DNA from: a phage
Sequence record: PZ452583.1
Reading direction: 5' to 3' (one strand)
DNA length: 64,000 nt
Shown here: positions 17,939-45,746 of the stretch, piece after piece
How the letters are laid out: each line of letters begins with the position of its first letter
Numbering within the stretch: the first letter of the stretch is position 1
The notes under the pieces: model-generated
Seen by the model: the letters and a program-made list of their open reading frames with translations, nothing else
Database searches by the model: none
What the model was told of the DNA's origin: nothing
Made by a program: the position numbers and the translations under genes

Positions 17939-17966
17939 TTTCTGTTCCTCCGTAGTTGATAGTTGT

Positions 17967-17996
17967 ATAATACCACAGAGGAACAGTCTTGTAAAC
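17967..17996 (-). promoter_or_regulatory. T4-type early promoter (GTTTAC, 18 bp, TATTAT) inside a hairpin whose 3' arm is the downstream SD
   Basis: 9-bp inverted repeat CTGTTCCTC (17942-17950) / GAGGAACAG (17978-17986) brackets the -10. Confidence 0.65.
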
Positions 17997-17998
17997 AA

Positions 17999-18313
17999 CT
18001 AAAAGAAACTTCTTTCACAATTTTTTCCACTGAACCAAGCGCTCACTGCTTTCTTAGTCTCAGGAGCAGTGTTATCCATAAACCATTCAAAGGCAGCCTT
18101 TTTATGATTCTGGAGGGCTTCTCGGGCTTTAATCTGCTCACGGTCTATTAACACTAACATATGAGCCTTTCTTGTCACCAAGGGCTTCTTATGATTTTTT
18201 GAATACTCCCAATCATTTGTCCAACGCATTGTCGTTGCGAACTGATGAACCGCGTCTTTAATTTTAGTTTCATAAATTTCACGAGCTTTTGAGTATAACA
18301 TCTTTACCTCCAT
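17999..18313 (-). CDS. Hypothetical protein, 104 aa
   Basis: ATG verified. Confidence 0.55.
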   Translation of the reverse strand: MEVKMLYSKAREIYETKIKDAVHQFATTMRWTNDWEYSKNHKKPLVTRKAHMLVLIDREQIKAREALQNHKKAAFEWFMDNTAPETKKAVSAWFSGKNCERSFF

Positions 18314-19371: not shown

Positions 19372-19405
19372 TTTATTCTCCAAATCCGTATCAGTTGATA
19401 GTTGT

Positions 19406-19435
19406 ATAGTACCATAAAGCTTTATGCTTGTAAAC
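19406..19435 (-). promoter_or_regulatory. T4-type early promoter (GTTTAC, 18 bp, TACTAT)
   Basis: Read on minus strand immediately after terminator 19466..19483. Confidence 0.6.
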
Positions 19436-19465
19436 AACTTTGTGAAAAATTTTTGAAATAAAAAA

Positions 19466-34692: not shown

Positions 34693-34824
34693 CGTTTTGT
34701 GAAAAAAATTTTTAAAAAGTTTTGGGGAATTCTAGGGCAGGGAGGGGAAATCAAAGGATAGGATAATATATTATAAAGGGTAGAAACTAAATGATGTCTA
34801 GAGAGGCCTGGAAAGGCCTAGATA

Positions 34825-34853
34825 CCAAAAAGCCCCAACCTTTCGGCTAGGGC
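34825..34853 (-). terminator. Rho-independent terminator (AGCCCUA-loop-UGGGGCU then UUUUU) downstream of the IP-like gene
   Basis: Stem and U-run read in sequence; part of a ~36-bp direct repeat with 35377-35412. Confidence 0.65.
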
Positions 34854-34861
34854 TAAGAATG

Positions 34862-35371: not shown

Positions 35372-35379
35372 TATTTATA
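35372..35379 (-). promoter_or_regulatory. Late promoter TATAAATA for the IP-like gene
   Basis: Exact TATAAATA on minus strand about 37 nt upstream of ATG 35335. Confidence 0.6.
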
Positions 35380-35380
35380 C

Positions 35381-35409
35381 TAAAAAGCCCCAACCTTTCG
35401 GCTGGGGCT
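35381..35409 (-). terminator. Rho-independent terminator (AGCCCCA-loop-UGGGGCU then UUUUU) upstream of the IP-like gene
   Basis: 7-bp stem and U-run read in sequence; near-identical to the 34825-34853 copy. Confidence 0.65.
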
Positions 35410-35439
35410 AAGCCTTGCGGCAACCTTGTCGGGGTTCCA

Positions 35440-36089: not shown

Positions 36090-36165
36090 TGGTCGAGGCA
36101 GTAGGGATCGAACCTACGACCTAGGACTTAGAAGGTCCTTGCTCTTCCTTCTGAGCTATGCCCCG
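36090..36165 (-). tRNA. tRNA-Arg (anticodon TCT)
   Basis: Hand-folded cloverleaf, 76 nt, CCA encoded; anticodon loop CTTCTAA; T-loop GGTTCGATCC. Confidence 0.85.
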
Positions 36166-36169
36166 TAAT

Positions 36170-36245
36170 TGGGGTGACCGATGGGAGTCGAACCCATGAC
36201 TACGAGAATCACAATCTCGAGTTCTACCAACTGAACTACGGCCAC
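36170..36245 (-). tRNA. tRNA-His (anticodon GTG); no encoded G(-1)
   Basis: Hand-folded cloverleaf, 76 nt; anticodon loop TTGTGAT; CCA encoded. Confidence 0.8.
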
Positions 36246-36359
36246 ATTAATATCTACTCCAACAATCATGATGTCTTCACACGAAATTAAGAGAAGAGTG
36301 ATCAGTTAAACCCTTATAATCGCGTCAAGTAGATATTAATGTGACAGTTGTCACAAATT

Positions 36360-36434
36360 TGGCGGACGTGATAGGATTCGAACCTATAACCAATCGCTTA
36401 ACAGGCGATCGCTCTGCCATTGAGCTACACATCC
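36360..36434 (-). tRNA. tRNA-Asn (anticodon GTT)
   Basis: Hand-folded cloverleaf, 75 nt; anticodon loop CTGTTAA; CCA encoded. Confidence 0.8.
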
Positions 36435-36438
36435 AAAT

Positions 36439-36525
36439 TGGTGGGGAGTGGTGGAGTCGAACCACCCGAGTCGCAATGACAATGAATTTACAGTCCACAC
36501 CGCTACCTCTACGGGATAACTCCCC
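36439..36525 (-). tRNA. tRNA-Tyr (anticodon GTA), long variable arm
   Basis: 87 nt; acceptor GGGGAGT/ACTCCCC; anticodon loop CTGTAAA; CCA encoded. Confidence 0.75.
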
Positions 36526-36537
36526 TAATTCATAATT

Positions 36538-36612
36538 TGGTGGCCCTGGGTGGAATTGAACCACCATCTGGCGATTATGAGTCGCTTGCTTGAACCTTCC
36601 AGCTACAGGGCC
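36538..36612 (-). tRNA. tRNA with anticodon CAT (elongator Met, or Ile if lysidine-modified as in T4 tRNA-Ile)
   Basis: 75 nt; acceptor GGCCCTG/CAGGGCC; anticodon loop CTCATAA; CCA encoded. Confidence 0.75.
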
Positions 36613-36613
36613 T

Positions 36614-36689
36614 TGGTGCTGATTGACGGAATCGAACCGCCGACCTTCTCATTACAAGTGAGTTGCTCTACCTACTGAGCTAAATCAGC
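36614..36689 (-). tRNA. tRNA-Thr (anticodon TGT)
   Basis: 76 nt; anticodon loop CTTGTAA; CCA encoded. Confidence 0.85.
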
Positions 36690-36694
36690 AAAAC

Positions 36695-36784
36695 TGGCGG
36701 AGGCGATAGGATTTGAACCTATGAGTCGCCGGAGCGACTGCCGGTTTTCAAGACCGGTGCATTAAACCACTCTGCCACGCCTCC
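36695..36784 (-). tRNA. tRNA-Ser (anticodon TGA), long variable arm
   Basis: 90 nt; anticodon stem-loop CCGGT-CTTGAAA-ACCGG; CCA encoded. Confidence 0.85.
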
Positions 36785-36786
36785 AG

Positions 36787-36860
36787 TCTCCATACAAGGA
36801 TTTGAACCTTGGACCTCCTGATCCCAAATCAGGCGCTCTACCAAACTGAGCTACACGGAG
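36787..36860 (-). tRNA. tRNA-Pro (anticodon TGG); 3' CCA not encoded, 2 nt from tRNA-Ser
   Basis: 74 nt; anticodon loop TTTGGGA; Pro-Ser dimeric arrangement as in T4. Confidence 0.8.
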
Positions 36861-36870
36861 TAAATTAAAT

Positions 36871-36944
<74 letters not shown>

Positions 36945-36949
36945 AAATT

Positions 36950-37036
36950 TGGTGCGAGAAGTGGGACTCGAACCCACAAGGAAATCATTCCGCAGCATTT
37001 TAAGTGCTGTGCCTTTACCAATTTGACCATTCTCGC
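36950..37036 (-). tRNA. tRNA-Leu (anticodon TAA), long variable arm
   Basis: 87 nt; anticodon stem-loop CAGCA-CTTAAAA-TGCTG; CCA encoded. Confidence 0.85.
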
Positions 37037-37042
37037 GTTATA

Positions 37043-37651
37043 TTATTTATTACGTGAAAAAGACTGTTCTATCAATTCTGGACACTTTCGTTCTATCCAT
37101 TTTCTAGCTTTTTGTGGGCTTATACCTATTATTTTAGCAGCTTTACTAACCCATCCAAATTTAGAATAATCGATTTTAACTAATTCTTCGTAAATTTCAT
37201 TAGTTAAAATCTTTTCATTAATATTTACCAGTAAATGATATAATTTGTTATCATTAGCAATTTTAATGAATCTTTTATAGTTTCCGCCTTTACTTAAACC
37301 TAATGAAGTAATTGCAGATGATATAGTAGCCGAATTTAATAATGCGTTTAAAATTTCTTCATCACTAACATTATAACGCTTTTTATTATTTTTAATATTT
37401 TTACCAGCAAAAGTATCAGTTTGCGAATGACAGTTTGGACATAATAATCTTAAATTTGATTTAAGATGATTTTTGTTATTTCCATCAATATGGTCTAATT
37501 GCAGAACAATATGCTTATTTTGCCATTTTGAAATTTTACAAATTGCACACTCATATGGAAAAATATTTTCTTTTATTATTTTGTCTTTCAGCTTTCCTGT
37601 ACTAAAATTTGGATGTTTTCCTTCAAAAATTTCAGCTAATTTAGTATCCAT
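37043..37651 (-). mobile_element. HNH homing endonuclease, 202 aa, 7 nt upstream of tRNA-Leu
   Basis: HNH core CAICKISKWQNKHIVLQLDHIDGNNKNHLKSNLRLLCPNCH plus C-terminal helix-turn-helix-like region; ORF-track start is TTG at 37675, first ATG 37651. Confidence 0.8.
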
Positions 37652-37750
37652 AATATGATTCCCAATTATTAACAAAGGCTCTCAAATAAGAACCCTTGAT
37701 GATAGAGGGTATTAATCAGTGCGGTATGAGTTAATAATAACAAATAATTC

Positions 37751-38266
37751 TTAAAGCAAATCAACCATTTTAACAGTCGGCAAAACAATTTCTTCTTCGA
37801 TATAAGCAAATTCTACATGTTCAACTACACGCAAGAAATCATATTCATAGTATTCAGAAGCATGACCAAGAATATCAATGAGGCCTTCAGATATCTTATT
37901 ACCATTCACAAAGAATAAATCAAATACACGTTCTTCATCTTCTTCGGATTTATTACCAAGGTCAACTTCTATATCAAAGACCTTTTTAATGAATTCTGGA
38001 TAAAGTTGGTCTGAGAACAGTCCTTCAACCAAATATTCATATATAAAAAGCTCTTGCTCGCTGAACAACCCATTACCACAATAACGGTCAGCTTTAGTGC
38101 TAGAATGACGACTCTTAAACTTCTTCAAAAGATATTTAAATTGTTGGAGCTCATGCTCTTCTACGCCAAACAGTGTTTTGGTTTTATAGTTATCACCATC
38201 ATTTTCCCAGGTAGTGACATCAATTACGTAACCCTTAGGAATTGTGCTGCCTAAACGAATATTCAT
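37751..38266 (-). CDS. Hypothetical acidic protein, 171 aa
   Basis: ATG verified. Confidence 0.55.
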   Translation of the reverse strand: MNIRLGSTIPKGYVIDVTTWENDGDNYKTKTLFGVEEHELQQFKYLLKKFKSRHSSTKADRYCGNGLFSEQELFIYEYLVEGLFSDQLYPEFIKKVFDIEVDLGNKSEEDEERVFDLFFVNGNKISEGLIDILGHASEYYEYDFLRVVEHVEFAYIEEEIVLPTVKMVDLL

Positions 38267-38556
38267 TTGCTCACCATATTAATGTAAGTATATTCAATAC
38301 ATTCAAGACCCAAAGGATTCTTGAAAATATCATATTCAAGAGGACCTTTTTCTGTTTCAATAAAGAAATCAAAATTTACTGTATTAAATTTACGGTCTTC
38401 CTTCACTAATTTAACTTGAGAAGATGAACGGTCAACATAAACCTTTTCAACTTCAAAACACGTTAAAACGCCATAATCATCAATCAAGGCTTTAGCCGCG
38501 TCTTGATCATATTTATATCCATTTTCAATGGATGATACTTTTGCATAAAGAATCAT
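38263..38556 (-). CDS. Hypothetical protein, 97 aa
   Basis: ORF-track start is GTG at 38562; ATG 38556 (MILYAKVSS...); its 5' end is duplicated at 38991-39016. Confidence 0.5.
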   Translation of the reverse strand: MILYAKVSSIENGYKYDQDAAKALIDDYGVLTCFEVEKVYVDRSSSQVKLVKEDRKFNTVNFDFFIETEKGPLEYDIFKNPLGLECIEYTYINMVSK

Positions 38557-38561
38557 TATCA
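38536..38561. repeat. 26-bp direct repeat, copy 1 (24/26 identical to 38991-39016); spans the start of ORF 38263..38556
   Basis: Read directly: TACTTTTGCATAAAGAATCATTATCA versus TACTTTAGCATAAAGAATCATTGTCA. Confidence 0.7.
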
Positions 38562-38939
38562 CACTCCGTAGTCTATCTTGACCAATCTACCTTTGTAGTA
38601 GCCAAAGTTCTTTGGAAAGGCATCATACTCAAAGAAATCACGGTCAAGCGTTCTACATTCATCACCATCAACATCATTATAGAGCTTTTGCAAATCAGAT
38701 TTAAAAAGCTCCTTATCCTCAACTGGCTCTGCTTTGTGCATCACAACCATGAGACCAAATCTGTTTGAGTATGCTATTGGGCATAGGTGCTTGTTATCAT
38801 ACCCCTTCCACTGACCTTCTGTAAGATTGCTGAGCATACCCTGCACGAAGTATTTCCATGTCTTGGGGATAGGGAACTTAATAGCATACTTACGTGTTAG
38901 TAGTACCCATCTGGTTCCACCCGATTTAATTAATTTCAT
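38559..38939 (-). CDS. Hypothetical protein, 126 aa, between the two 26-bp direct repeats
   Basis: ATG verified. Confidence 0.55.
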   Translation of the reverse strand: MKLIKSGGTRWVLLTRKYAIKFPIPKTWKYFVQGMLSNLTEGQWKGYDNKHLCPIAYSNRFGLMVVMHKAEPVEDKELFKSDLQKLYNDVDGDECRTLDRDFFEYDAFPKNFGYYKGRLVKIDYGV

Positions 38940-38990
38940 AGTCTCAGCTACCTCAATATTAATTTAAGCAATATCATTCCTATAAGGTAG

Positions 38991-39016
38991 TACTTTAGCA
39001 TAAAGAATCATTGTCA
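38991..39016. repeat. 26-bp direct repeat, copy 2; encodes a vestigial 14-codon duplicate of the MILYAK start
   Basis: Minus strand reads ATG ATT CTT TAT GCT AAA ... then stop after 14 codons. Confidence 0.7.
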
Positions 39017-39424
39017 GCCTCTATCAACGATAGCATGAGTATGGGCATTTACGATTTGCCACCAGTCGAAACGATTGGAACCATAATCTGGTTTATTTTC
39101 ATTTTCTTTAATGATATCACGCAGCTTATCTTCTGTTTCAGCATACGCAATTAAATCATCATATCCACCGCAAGGATAATAATTATCACCTGCGAATAAA
39201 AGAAAATTTACCTTAGATGGATTTACGTAATAATGGTCTTTAGGATATTTAGTTCCTCTCCAATCAGTTACTTCAACATAACGGTAAGAAAATCCATTTT
39301 TACTTTCAATCCAACTCCACGCTTCAAAAGGAGTATTAAAAACTTTATCAGGTATTAAATTACCTTCAAAATGAGAAGGATTTGCATAATCCCCGGCATA
39401 AACATAATATTCGTTAATACTCAT
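39014..39424 (-). CDS. Hypothetical protein, 136 aa
   Basis: ATG verified. Confidence 0.55.
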   Translation of the reverse strand: MSINEYYVYAGDYANPSHFEGNLIPDKVFNTPFEAWSWIESKNGFSYRYVEVTDWRGTKYPKDHYYVNPSKVNFLLFAGDNYYPCGGYDDLIAYAETEDKLRDIIKENENKPDYGSNRFDWWQIVNAHTHAIVDRG

Positions 39425-39610
39425 TTATTCACCTTTAGAAATTTTATCCATAACGATAGCGATTAAACCAATTAAAAATGCTACTACAAGCGAAAACACA
39501 TTTTCTGCTGTAGTTAATAATCCGCATATAAATCCAACAAACATTGAAAAACTAAAAGCGGAAGCAGAAATTGCAATAGCAACATTTCGAATTAATTCAC
39601 AACGTTTCAT
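39425..39610 (-). CDS. Small membrane protein, 60 aa
   Basis: ORF-track 5' extension is promoter read-through; ATG 39610 with SD GAGGAG; one TM helix. Confidence 0.5.
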   Translation of the reverse strand: MKRCELIRNVAIAISASAFSFSMFVGFICGLLTTAENVFSLVVAFLIGLIAIVMDKISKGE

Positions 39611-39634
39611 TTTATTCTCCTCAGTAGTTGATAG

Positions 39635-39690
39635 GGTAATAGTATCACTACTAAAACCCCGTGTAAACAACTTTGTGAAATTATTTTAAA
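39635..39690. repeat. Promoter-plus-stem-loop direct repeat, copy A (47/56 identical to 39966-40021), downstream flank of the IPI-like gene
   Basis: Shares GGTAATAGTATCACTAC and GTGTAAACAACTTTGTGAAATTATTTTAAA with copy B; contains early promoter 39639..39668. Confidence 0.7.
39639..39668 (-). promoter_or_regulatory. T4-type early promoter (GTTTAC, 18 bp, TACTAT)
   Basis: Read on minus strand; -10 flanked by AGTAGT/ACTACT inverted repeat. Confidence 0.6.
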
Positions 39691-39938
39691 TCTTCTAATC
39701 GTTTCTTCATCTTAGAACCATTTTTAGCGATTTCTCCTGCGTCAGAGCATAATGCTAAAAGTGCTTTAACTTTAGTTTGGTCTCCTTTAAAAGACGAAGG
39801 ATCGACTGCAGCAGCAAGTTCTTTAATACGAGAGAAAAGACGCTCAGCTTCAGCTAAAGCCATTCCAAGCTTTACTTCCATACCATGAGAAGATTCAGTG
39901 ATAATAGTTTCTGTAGCAAACTCTTTATAAGTTTTCAT
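39681..39938 (-). CDS. Internal-protein-like capsid-packaged protein, 85 aa, at the T4 ipI position
   Basis: N-terminus MKTYKEFATE matches the IP capsid-targeting consensus; adjacent to 57B; flanked by promoter-containing direct repeats. Confidence 0.65.
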   Translation of the reverse strand: MKTYKEFATETIITESSHGMEVKLGMALAEAERLFSRIKELAAAVDPSSFKGDQTKVKALLALCSDAGEIAKNGSKMKKRLEDLK

Positions 39939-39965
39939 TTTATTTTTCCTAATTAATTTTGATGA

Positions 39966-40708
<743 letters not shown>

Positions 40709-44035: not shown

Positions 44036-45746
44036 TAACCTTAATTGGTTTGTTGGTGTTGTTGAAGATAGAATGGACCCATTAAAATTAGGTCGTGTTC
44101 GTGTTCGTGTTGTTGGTCTGCATCCACCTCAAAGAGCACAAGGTGATGTAATGGGTATTCCAACTGAAAAATTACCGTGGATGTCAGTTATTCAACCTAT
44201 AACTTCTGCAGCAATGTCAGGAATTGGAGGTTCTGTTACTGGACCAGTAGAAGGAACTAGAGTTTATGGTCATTTTTTAGACAAATGGAAAACTAACGGA
44301 ATTGTCCTTGGCACGTATGGTGGAATAGTTCGCGAAAAACCGAATAGACTTGAAGGATTTTCTGATCCAACTGGACAATATCCTAGACGTTTAGGAAATG
44401 ATACTAACGTACTAAACCAAGGCGGTGATGTAGGATATGATTCCTCTTCTAATGTTATTCAAGATAGTAACTTAGACACTGCAATAAATCCTGATGATAG
44501 ACCACTATCAGAGATTCCAACTGATGATAATCCAAACATGTCAATGGCTGAAATGCTTCGCCGTGATGAAGGATTAAGACTAAAAGTTTATTGGGATACT
44601 GAAGGATATCCGACAATTGGTATTGGTCATCTTATCATGAAGCAGCCAGTTCGTGATATGGCTCAAATTAATAAAGTTTTATCAAAACAAGTTGGTCGTG
44701 AAATTACAGGAAATCCAGGTTCTATTACAATGGAAGAAGCGACGACTTTATTTGAGCGTGATTTGGCTGATATGCAACGTGATATTAAATCACATTCTAA
44801 AGTAGGACCAGTCTGGCAAGCTGTCAACCGTTCTCGCCAAATGGCATTAGAAAATATGGCATTTCAGATGGGTGTTGGCGGCGTAGCTAAATTTAACACA
44901 ATGTTAACTGCTATGTTAGCAGGAGATTGGGAAAAAGCATATAAAGCCGGTCGTGATTCATTGTGGTATCAACAAACAAAAGGCCGTGCATCCCGTGTTA
45001 CCATGATTATTCTTACGGGAAATTTGGAATCATATGGTGTTGAAGTGAAAACTCCGGCTAGGTCTTTATCGGCAATGGCTGCGACTGTAGCTAAATCTTC
45101 TGATCCAGCTGATCCTCCTATTCCAAATGACTCAAGAATTTTGTTCAAAGAACCAGTTTCTTCATATAAAGGCGAATATCCTTATGTGCATACAATGGAA
45201 ACTGAAAGTGGACATATTCAGGAATTTGATGATACCCCTGGGCAAGAACGATACAGATTAGTTCATCCAACTGGAACTTATGAAGAAGTATCACCGTCAG
45301 GAAGAAGAACAAGAAAAACTGTTGATAATTTGTATGATATAACCAACGCTGATGGTAATTTTTTGGTAGCCGGTGATAAAAAGACTAACGTCGGTGGATC
45401 AGAAATTTATTACAACATGGATAATCGTCTTCACCAGATAGATGGAAGCAATACAATATTTGTACGTGGCGATGAAACTAAGACGGTTGAAGGTAATGGA
45501 ACTATCCTAGTTAAAGGTAATGTTACTATTGTAGTTGAAGGTAATGCTGACATTACAGTTAAAGGAGATGCTACCACTTTAGTTGAAGGTAATCAAACTA
45601 ACACAGTAAATGGAAATCTTTCTTGGAAAGTTGCTGGGACAGTTGATTGGGACGTTGGTGGTGATTGGACAGAAAAAATGGCATCTATGAGTTCTATTTC
45701 ATCTGGTCAATACACAATTGATGGATCGAGGATTGACATTGGCTAA
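44019..45746 (+). CDS. 5: Baseplate hub / cell-puncturing protein gp5 with lysozyme domain
   Basis: 575 aa; internal lysozyme domain (MAEMLRRDEGLRLKVYWDTEGYPTIGIGHLI); C-terminal beta-helix VxGN repeats. Confidence 0.95.
   Translation: MEMISNNLNWFVGVVEDRMDPLKLGRVRVRVVGLHPPQRAQGDVMGIPTEKLPWMSVIQPITSAAMSGIGGSVTGPVEGTRVYGHFLDKWKTNGIVLGTYGGIVREKPNRLEGFSDPTGQYPRRLGNDTNVLNQGGDVGYDSSSNVIQDSNLDTAINPDDRPLSEIPTDDNPNMSMAEMLRRDEGLRLKVYWDTEGYPTIGIGHLIMKQPVRDMAQINKVLSKQVGREITGNPGSITMEEATTLFERDLADMQRDIKSHSKVGPVWQAVNRSRQMALENMAFQMGVGGVAKFNTMLTAMLAGDWEKAYKAGRDSLWYQQTKGRASRVTMIILTGNLESYGVEVKTPARSLSAMAATVAKSSDPADPPIPNDSRILFKEPVSSYKGEYPYVHTMETESGHIQEFDDTPGQERYRLVHPTGTYEEVSPSGRRTRKTVDNLYDITNADGNFLVAGDKKTNVGGSEIYYNMDNRLHQIDGSNTIFVRGDETKTVEGNGTILVKGNVTIVVEGNADITVKGDATTLVEGNQTNTVNGNLSWKVAGTVDWDVGGDWTEKMASMSSISSGQYTIDGSRIDIG

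Follow-up and report, generated by a model that had tools for sequence, protein, structure and literature searches.

A 26-nt direct repeat around a small kinase-like gene as the probable scar of a gene acquisition in a T4-like phage

How does a phage come to carry the start of one gene twice, with another gene in between? The question arises in a 64,000-nucleotide (nt) stretch of phage sequence record PZ452583.1 (hereafter the window), from a Tequatrovirus (T4-like, Straboviridae) genome, where a 26-nt direct repeat brackets a 126-amino-acid (aa) open reading frame (ORF) that we call the cargo gene (38559..38939, minus strand; PHROG 4301, function not assigned). Both copies of the repeat contain the first codons of the gene that follows, trna.2; this name, like trna.3 and trna.4 below, is taken from the annotations of T4 and RB32, and all genes in the region lie on the minus strand. 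Here, we argue that a single horizontal gene acquisition left this structure behind, through two independent microhomology joints at staggered positions in the target, a reading to which we assign a probability of about 0.6. Read in this way, the locus is a fairly ordinary, clean example of T4-like phages gaining accessory genes.

The upstream copy (TGACAATGATTCTTTATGCTAAAGTA, 38991..39016, minus strand) and the downstream copy (TGATAATGATTCTTTATGCAAAAGTA, 38536..38561, minus strand) are identical at 24 of 26 positions and lie 455 nt apart, start to start, exactly where an initial annotation had placed them, with the cargo gene between them. A pattern scan of the 64 kb that allowed up to three mismatches found no third copy, and the expectation from dinucleotide-preserving shuffles was 0.00 matches. 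On the coding strand, either copy reads TGA NN ATG ATT CTT TAT GCN AAA GTA, that is, a stop, two bases, and a start plus six codons. In the downstream copy, the TGA (38561..38559), first triplet of the repeat, is the cargo stop, and the ATG at 38556 is, as annotated at first, the true start (MILYAKV) of ORF 38263..38556 (minus strand), an intact 97-aa trna.2 homolog (PHROG 2023, E 1e-47) that aligns with trna.2 of T4 and RB32. In the upstream copy, the TGA (39016..39014), again the first triplet, ends the upstream neighbor, a 136-aa trna.3 homolog (39014..39424, minus strand; PHROG 1411, E 9e-51), which aligns with trna.3 of T4 and RB32 at 97-99.8% nt identity. Two bases further on, the ATG at 39011 opens the severed first seven codons of trna.2, after which the frame enters unrelated sequence and stops. 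The resulting mini-ORF, MILYAKVLPYRNDIA followed by a stop (38964..39011, minus strand), is a dead end as originally described, with 15 sense codons and a stop instead of the 14 codons first counted. Weaker similarity around the copies reaches 31 nt at 87% identity. Just 5' of the TGA it pairs GAGGC, the Arg-Gly end of trna.3, with GAGTG, from the Gly-Val ending of the cargo, an ending that the homologs of other phages have kept; judged from these sequences, this similarity lies outside the duplication.

A 2-kb query around the repeat locus matched 849 phage records, nearly all of them T4-like coliphages. In T4, RB32, and LF82-9, trna.3 directly adjoins trna.2 and a single copy of the repeat is present; the RB32 match to the window is shorter by exactly 455 bp. 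When a synthetic empty junction was used as the query (the window with 38562-39016 deleted; matches over at least 80% of the query length), 501 records matched, about 490 of them contiguously and the other 10, all carrier records, in two pieces. The 429-bp insert itself, at 98.6% identity to the window or above (range 98.6-99.5%), was found in 10 records that represent eight phages: ESh17, QOTSP, EL, PhiZZ30, PaulHMueller, G4507, G10400, and ECP52. These carriers are independent isolates from several countries and amount to roughly 2% of the records having the junction. The insert occurs once per carrier genome, invariably between trna.3 and trna.2, and all eight carriers share with the window both repeat copies and identical joints. 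Since the two-copy structure is common to nine independent assemblies, it is not an assembly artifact. The initial annotation had proposed comparing relatives with and without the ORF, and had named relatives with the same two copies and a second gene left intact as the case that would speak for a conserved overlapping start. The comparison favored its expectation: every phage with the ORF has both copies, the ORF-less relatives (T4, RB32, LF82-9, and about 490 other records) have a single copy at a seamless trna.3/trna.2 junction, and no carrier was found in which a complete second gene follows the upstream copy. On these alignments, the two-copy structure is best described as one insertion and not as a conserved overlapping start. 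Because the upstream copy carries only a cut-off 5' piece of trna.2, the empty arrangement is ancestral and the occupied one derived.

It could still be proposed that the three-gene arrangement is old and that most Tequatroviruses have lost the cargo by deletion between the copies. With 24 of 26 positions identical and a spacing of 455 bp, the direct repeats make good substrates for deletion in T4 (PMC9391042), the insert varies no less among carriers (98.4-100% identity) than their trna.3 does (97-100%), and the neighboring contexts of the carriers are diverse. However, eight carrier phages stand against about 490 empty-junction records, and the more distant empty sites examined (the IMG/VR contigs L014-L017 and W143, which has no trna.3) hold one copy. 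A scan of IMG/VR for the repeat led to four T4-like contigs with a single copy in each, and T4-like phages yielded neither a diverged insert nor a diverged second copy. Whichever way the polymorphism arose, an empty state must have preceded the occupied one, the upstream copy being a fragment, and the base composition and nearest relatives of the cargo point outside the T4 group. Altogether, we regard an old arrangement followed by widespread loss as improbable.

The composition of the cargo gene sets it apart from its surroundings: its guanine-plus-cytosine (GC) content is 40.7%, compared with 30-34% in neighboring genes and 35.2 ± 3.4% in windows of the same size, 4.9% of which reach 40.7%. 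Its closest relatives beyond the T4-like carriers have 66-86% nt identity and occur in Schitoviridae, Vequintavirinae, Drexlerviridae, metagenomic phage contigs, and prophages. They include a Schitoviridae-like metagenomic contig with a Moonfish-like gene context (L024, 86% nt identity), unassigned contigs of about 48 kb (L022 and L025, 80-84%), A7_1 and A5-4 of the Vequintavirinae (78%), phi G17 and Moonfish of the Schitoviridae (73-74%), and GaoY1-9D of the Drexlerviridae (66%). Remoter protein homologs are present in Felix-O1-like phages, jumbo phages, Aeromonas phages, and an E. coli lambdoid prophage. Between the upstream copy and the cargo gene lies a 51-nt leader with a GAGGT Shine-Dalgarno-like motif (38940..38990, minus strand), which among these relatives is common only to phi G17, where the region upstream of the homolog aligns with it without gaps at ~70% identity. 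Because leader homology and the closest gene both point to Schitoviridae, the donor lineage was probably the N4-like (Schitoviridae) coliphages.

The comparison with phi G17 also indicates where the joints lie. The blastn alignment with the window begins within the upstream copy, at its final 6 nt (AAAGTA), spans the leader and the gene, and stops at ATGATT, which reaches base 11 of the downstream copy. When the two sequences were compared without gaps from the cargo ATG and scored in 10-nt blocks, most leader blocks had 6-9 of 10 positions identical, and identity dropped, exactly at AAAG, to 2-4 of 10 farther upstream. At the other end, the homolog in phi G17 and several other phages closes with Gly-Val-TGA-NN-ATG, the ATG being that of the next gene. 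This stop-start junction is, for example, TGACTATGATT in phi G17, TGACTATGAAT both in A7_1 and in L025, and TGATTATG in L021. Between the phi G17 junction and the empty T4-type target TGACAATGATT, 10 of 11 positions agree (TGAC(T/A)ATGATT), a score that was equalled by 9 of 5000 shuffles of an 86-nt target region. The initial annotation had explained the repeat by recombination between short homologous start regions. That interpretation is supported, except that the repeat is not a pair of pre-existing homologous gene starts: one start region and the stop codon before it were duplicated upon the insertion of foreign DNA. The short homology that matters appears to be that between the phage target and the foreign donor, with TGAnnATGATT at one joint and AAAGTA at the other.

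Several observations weigh against this reading of the joints. The left patch (AAAGTA versus AAAGCA) was equalled by 2283 of the 5000 shuffles and taken alone is at chance level, and the right patch is partly the generic stop-NN-ATG architecture of gene junctions. The true donor was not found in IMG/VR, the JGI metagenomes, the GTDB genomes, or a search of 5.8 billion proteins: IMG/VR yielded no relative, the JGI metagenomes yielded one locus with 73% aa identity to the cargo, GTDB yielded no donor, and the best non-T4 match in the protein search (85% aa identity) is on an 821-bp contig that has no leader. The closest gene, on L024 (86% nt identity), lacks the leader as well. Since phi G17 is only 74% identical, the microhomologies are read from a proxy, and since the two differing positions of the repeat are polymorphic among empty sites, the original target is not reconstructable.

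The sequence of events that we favor is as follows. In the ancestral state, trna.3 and trna.2 would have been separated by TGA NN ATG only and translationally coupled. A linear foreign fragment carrying the 51-nt leader, the kinase-like gene, and its own TGA NN ATG junction would have been inserted, most likely from an N4-like coliphage in a co-infection, and we infer that each of its ends was joined to phage DNA separately, at a short patch of identity. The right end would have joined at TGAnnATGATT (trna.2 positions -5 to +6) and the left end at AAAGTA (positions +16 to +21). As the left joint is downstream of the right joint in the target, the 26 nt spanned by the two would be kept on both sides, as a direct repeat. 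Such a geometry should arise readily in T4-infected cells, whose many recombining genome copies, linked in a branched network, could let the fragment ends engage different copies; template switching in replication would yield the same product. The outcome would be a whole trna.2 whose start lies 2 nt past the stop of the new gene, and an upstream copy left behind as the 15-codon dead-end ORF. Such an arrangement is presumably tolerable to selection, given that trna.2 is complete and begins 2 nt after a stop as before. On this view, the 26-nt duplication illustrates how DNA can enter the 5' part of a resident gene and do no harm, because the stop-NN-ATG coupling junction is rebuilt.

Events of this kind, in which microhomology brings an accessory gene into a plastic region of a T4-like genome, are well precedented. 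T4 recombines at microhomologies of 6-10 bp, with duplications and deletions arising within a few infection generations (PMC9391042); Srikant et al. 2022 describe duplications, amplifications, and deletions of this type (PMC9391042), and earlier T4 microhomology work is cited there (Wu et al. 1991; Kumagai et al. 1993). Our locus would resemble these cases in having its joints at 6-11-nt identity patches, in needing no dedicated recombinase, and in producing direct repeats or indels of accessory genes. It differs in that the laboratory cases lie within one genome, whereas here the joint would be a natural one between genomes, would involve foreign DNA, and would consist of two staggered joints instead of one. 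Thus, if we read it correctly, the locus adds a natural between-genome case to the laboratory evidence that T4 evolves by microhomology recombination. It would also be an unusually legible record of a virulent phage taking a gene from an unrelated phage, with the joints, the pre-insertion site, and the donor-like sequence all readable. A separate rearrangement is seen close by in W143 (L019 1919-1925; compare 38556 and 39424 in the window), and apparently in SV76 and LYE-01, which have no trna.3 and in which trna.4 is joined to trna.2; in W143, the joint again falls at the stop-NN-ATG junction (…AAAGGT TAATA ATGATTC…), and Shine-Dalgarno, stop, and start sequences at the trna.2-trna.4 boundaries may be recurrent breakpoints. 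The cargo locus, if read correctly, shows that such gene-boundary sequences can act as recombination patches.

Once inserted, the allele would have spread or persisted among Tequatroviruses by ordinary homologous recombination in the DNA on either side. At least three different trna.2 3' ends and downstream contexts accompany the insert: with a 171-aa ORF, without it, and in the QOTSP variant. For the 24-kb stretches on its flanks, the best matches of the window mix carriers (ESh17, QOTSP, PhiZZ30, and EL) with non-carriers (Some, teqsoen, SHBML-50-1, AndreasVesalius, and MLF4), at 96-98.5% identity. These patterns are consistent with shuffling of the insert allele by homologous recombination in flanks that are more than 97% identical, which is the usual Tequatrovirus mosaic. 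The trna.2 alleles allowed no inference on crossovers forced at the repeat; their differences cluster in the 3' end of the gene, more than 240 nt away. We also suggest that nearby homing endonuclease genes could aid the spread of the allele by co-conversion, as homing is known to co-convert flanking markers (PMC2330249). For functional work, carriers and non-carriers that are 96-98% identical over the compared 24-kb stretches exist in nature, and the BASEL phage Bas45 PaulHMueller is one of the carriers.

The initial annotation had further proposed that the repeats leave a cassette that can be gained or lost. Gain is borne out by the presence/absence polymorphism, and loss through the repeats is no more than plausible; as the cassette is present at one locus only, its mobility is hypothetical. 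In particular, a precise deletion to the empty state could plausibly proceed through the 24/26-nt repeats, as would be expected from T4 biology. The closest empty site, in LF82-9 (trna.3 99.8% and trna.2 98.9% identical to the window), has a single copy (TGACA...GCA), precisely the chimera that would be left if the upstream (TGACA...GCT) and downstream (TGATA...GCA) copies of the window crossed over with each other. It could equally be an unoccupied ancestor, both variable positions being polymorphic among empty sites. Conversion or allele exchange would account for the identical copies in PaulHMueller, an observation that is proof of neither.

The same repeats could have served for gain if a small circle carrying the cargo and one 26-nt copy had entered by a single (Campbell-type) crossover at the resident trna.2 start, leaving a copy on each side, a mode of entry also proposed for the mini-circles of RB49 and phi1 discussed below. 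This is the simplest formal route to an insert between direct target repeats; empty sites hold exactly one copy, the LF82-9 copy is the chimera that a crossover between the two copies of the window predicts, and circles of similar size have been detected experimentally in T4-type phages (PMC2839356). Still, a mini-circle could move the cassette among T4-like genomes and not explain its origin, as the non-T4 relatives have only the 6-nt and 11-nt patches and lack the 26 nt. The cassette is at one locus only, the repeat occurs nowhere else in the window where a circle might dock, and flanks with more than 97% homology already permit an ordinary double crossover. We therefore consider entry as a circle unlikely, if somewhat less so than an old three-gene arrangement.

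Circles of this kind are known from the PeSL (promoter-early stem-loop) cassettes, which flank ORFans in the T4-type phages RB49 and phi1 and form mini-circles (Arbiol et al. 2010, PMC2839356; Comeau et al. 2014, PMC4122927). The likeness is one of topology only: an accessory ORF in a plastic T4-type region lies between two direct copies that include the start codon of the downstream gene, close relatives without the ORF have one copy, and a circle of roughly 450 bp would be released if the two copies recombined. Unlike PeSLs, however, the repeat has neither a sigma-70 promoter nor a stem-loop, and it is present twice in 64 kb instead of being a dispersed motif. We found no promoter-like site in the upstream copy, and one weak 9-of-12 match overlaps the downstream copy; the surrounding region has nine promoter-like sites, below the shuffle mean of 10.8, and no terminator-like site was found in 37600-40100. 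On these grounds (no promoter, no terminator or stem-loop, and no dispersed copies), identity with a PeSL was rejected. A PeSL is a pre-existing regulatory module, whereas the repeat described here would be a one-off duplication of target coding sequence made by the insertion itself.

A regulatory role could nevertheless be imagined for the duplicated start, with selection having kept it as a 15-codon leader ORF that couples translation of trna.3 into the foreign leader and so controls the cargo. In its favor, the mini-ORF starts 2 nt past the trna.3 stop, reproducing the coupling geometry of the original junction, and its end is 24 nt from the cargo ATG and about 10 nt from the GAGGT motif. 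It is also intact in all nine carriers (the window included), with one synonymous TAT>TAC change as the only difference. Yet the carriers are too alike for this conservation to count, and the phi G17 homolog has the same leader without such an ORF. Moreover, the copy plus leader shows no significant RNA structure that translation might open (-13.9 kcal/mol, z = 0.39 against shuffles). Regulation based on structure in the duplicated start and leader was dropped for that reason, its fold being no better than that of shuffled sequence, and selection for a leader ORF as such seems to us quite doubtful.

Insertion by a dedicated mobile element, either a transposase that duplicates its target site or a homing endonuclease, is effectively refuted as the origin. 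It is true that a direct target duplication flanks the insert, that homing endonuclease genes are common nearby (segB in relatives and an HNH-like ORF, 37043..37675, in the window), and that homing co-conversion of flanking markers (PMC2330249) could have helped the allele to spread. However, the insert encodes the kinase-like protein only, with no transposase, integrase, or endonuclease by Pfam, NCBIfam, and fold comparison. No inverted repeats were found at the insert ends, and a single site is occupied in each genome. The length of the duplication also argues against transposition, 26 bp being far longer than transposon target duplications. A transposon was rejected for want of a transposase, terminal inverted repeats, and more than a single site per genome, and a homing cassette because no GIY-YIG, HNH, or LAGLIDADG endonuclease is encoded in the insert (Pfam, NCBIfam) and the fold is that of a kinase.

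The nature of the cargo protein itself comes from fold comparison. No Pfam match at E ≤ 1, no NCBIfam match, and, with the family profile, no PDB sequence match at E ≤ 10 was found, and annotation at the sequence level (Pfam, NCBIfam, PHROGs, PDB sequences) gave no function. An AlphaFold2 model (mean predicted local distance difference test score 91, predicted template modeling score 0.80) matches, in a Foldseek search against viral models, phage proteins annotated as protein kinases. With high confidence, a bilobal ATP-binding fold of the protein-kinase-like (PKL) type is predicted, in minimal form. In an alignment of 34 homologs (52-85% identity to the window protein), G7, T9, R10, K21, E41, D106, and N111 are invariant and D123-Y-G is near-invariant, D123 being at least 90% conserved. 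By order and spacing, and not by residue-level superposition, these residues would correspond to the glycine-rich loop, the VAIK lysine (K21), the helix-C glutamate (E41), the DxxxxN catalytic loop (D106, N111), and the DFG motif (D123). The protein ends three residues after the DFG-like Asp, with no activation segment and no C-lobe helices. To our knowledge, its 126 aa are roughly half the length of the smallest characterized kinases. The small PKL members (Bud32, RIO, ArkI, and OspG) and phage kinases such as T7 gp0.7 are the nearest known systems, for the cargo only; the cargo is recognized by no Pfam, NCBIfam, or PDB sequence model.

Homologs of the cargo are scattered over at least six unrelated phage groups and a lambdoid prophage. 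The locus draws attention to a widespread family of very small, kinase-like phage proteins that lack annotation, which we consider its most promising lead. No cargo-specific promoter was found. The gene is presumably co-transcribed with trna.4 and trna.3 from the early-promoter-like site at 39667..39639, and hence would be an early gene. Extrapolating from the model, we can sketch a more speculative and rather unlikely scenario, in which the cargo is an active phosphotransferase of 126 residues, the smallest known PKL enzyme. Such a mini-kinase would hop between phage families as an early host-takeover or counter-defense factor, the duplicated trna.2 start having been co-opted as a leader ORF that plugs it into the translational coupling of the operon. 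If true, the families involved would be N4-like, rV5-like, T1-like, Felix-O1-like, jumbo, lambdoid, and now T4-like phages. As to the gene with the duplicated start, T4 Trna.2 is one of only two phage proteins reported as enriched in pull-downs of active DRT1 in a 2026 paper on DRT1 defense (PMC13275509), so trna.2 may interact with host defense. PHROGs, Pfam, and NCBIfam gave no function for trna.2, trna.3, or trna.4.

Read along the minus strand, the neighborhood consists of deoxynucleoside monophosphate (dNMP) kinase, gp57A, 57B, an internal-protein gene, trna.4 (39425..39610, minus strand, upstream of trna.3), trna.3, the 126-aa cargo ORF, trna.2, the 171-aa ORF, the HNH-like ORF, and a tRNA cluster. 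About 700 bp from the 26-nt repeat, a 69-nt direct repeat (39628-39696 and 39959-40027, 86% identity) brackets the internal-protein gene (39681..39938), and each copy holds a T4 early-promoter-like site (TTTACA-17-TACTAT, minus strand). In the RB32 annotation, internal-protein (ip) genes are "flanked by 43 bp direct repeat". The ip locus of T-even phages and the cargo locus thus share a neighborhood and presence/absence variation between direct repeats. They differ in that the ip repeats are early-promoter and leader sequences of many alternative genes, whereas the 26-nt repeat is a stop-start junction plus seven codons of one gene.

On the other side, the 210-aa HNH-like ORF (37043-37675, minus strand; weak HNH match, Pfam E 0.005) lies between a tRNA-Leu gene and the 171-aa ORF, where T4, RB32, and LF82-9 have tRNA-Gln. 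ARAGORN finds 10 tRNAs in the tRNA cluster (36090-37036), with no tRNA-Gln among them, and G10400 has a similar ORF at the tRNA-Gln position. From its sequence and position, the ORF looks like a homing endonuclease gene that occupies or replaces the tRNA-Gln slot. Upstream of the tRNA region, a 36-nt direct repeat (34822-34857 and 35377-35412, 94% identity) with a GC-rich hairpin (AAAAAGCCCCAACCTTTCGGCTAGGGC) brackets a 555-bp segment, and may be a terminator-like pair around another small variable segment. Farther away, a 62-nt direct repeat (17954-18015 and 19393-19454, 74% identity, 1439 bp apart) contains T4 early-promoter-like sequence (TTGTAAACAAC… and TATAATAC) and may mark another promoter-bracketed, PeSL-like module. 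In the baseplate gene region (45462-45629), a 24-nt period that encodes V-x-G-x-x-x-x-x recurs six times in register; it is probably no more than the coding repeat of a common beta-helix, for instance the C-terminal helix of T4 gp5.

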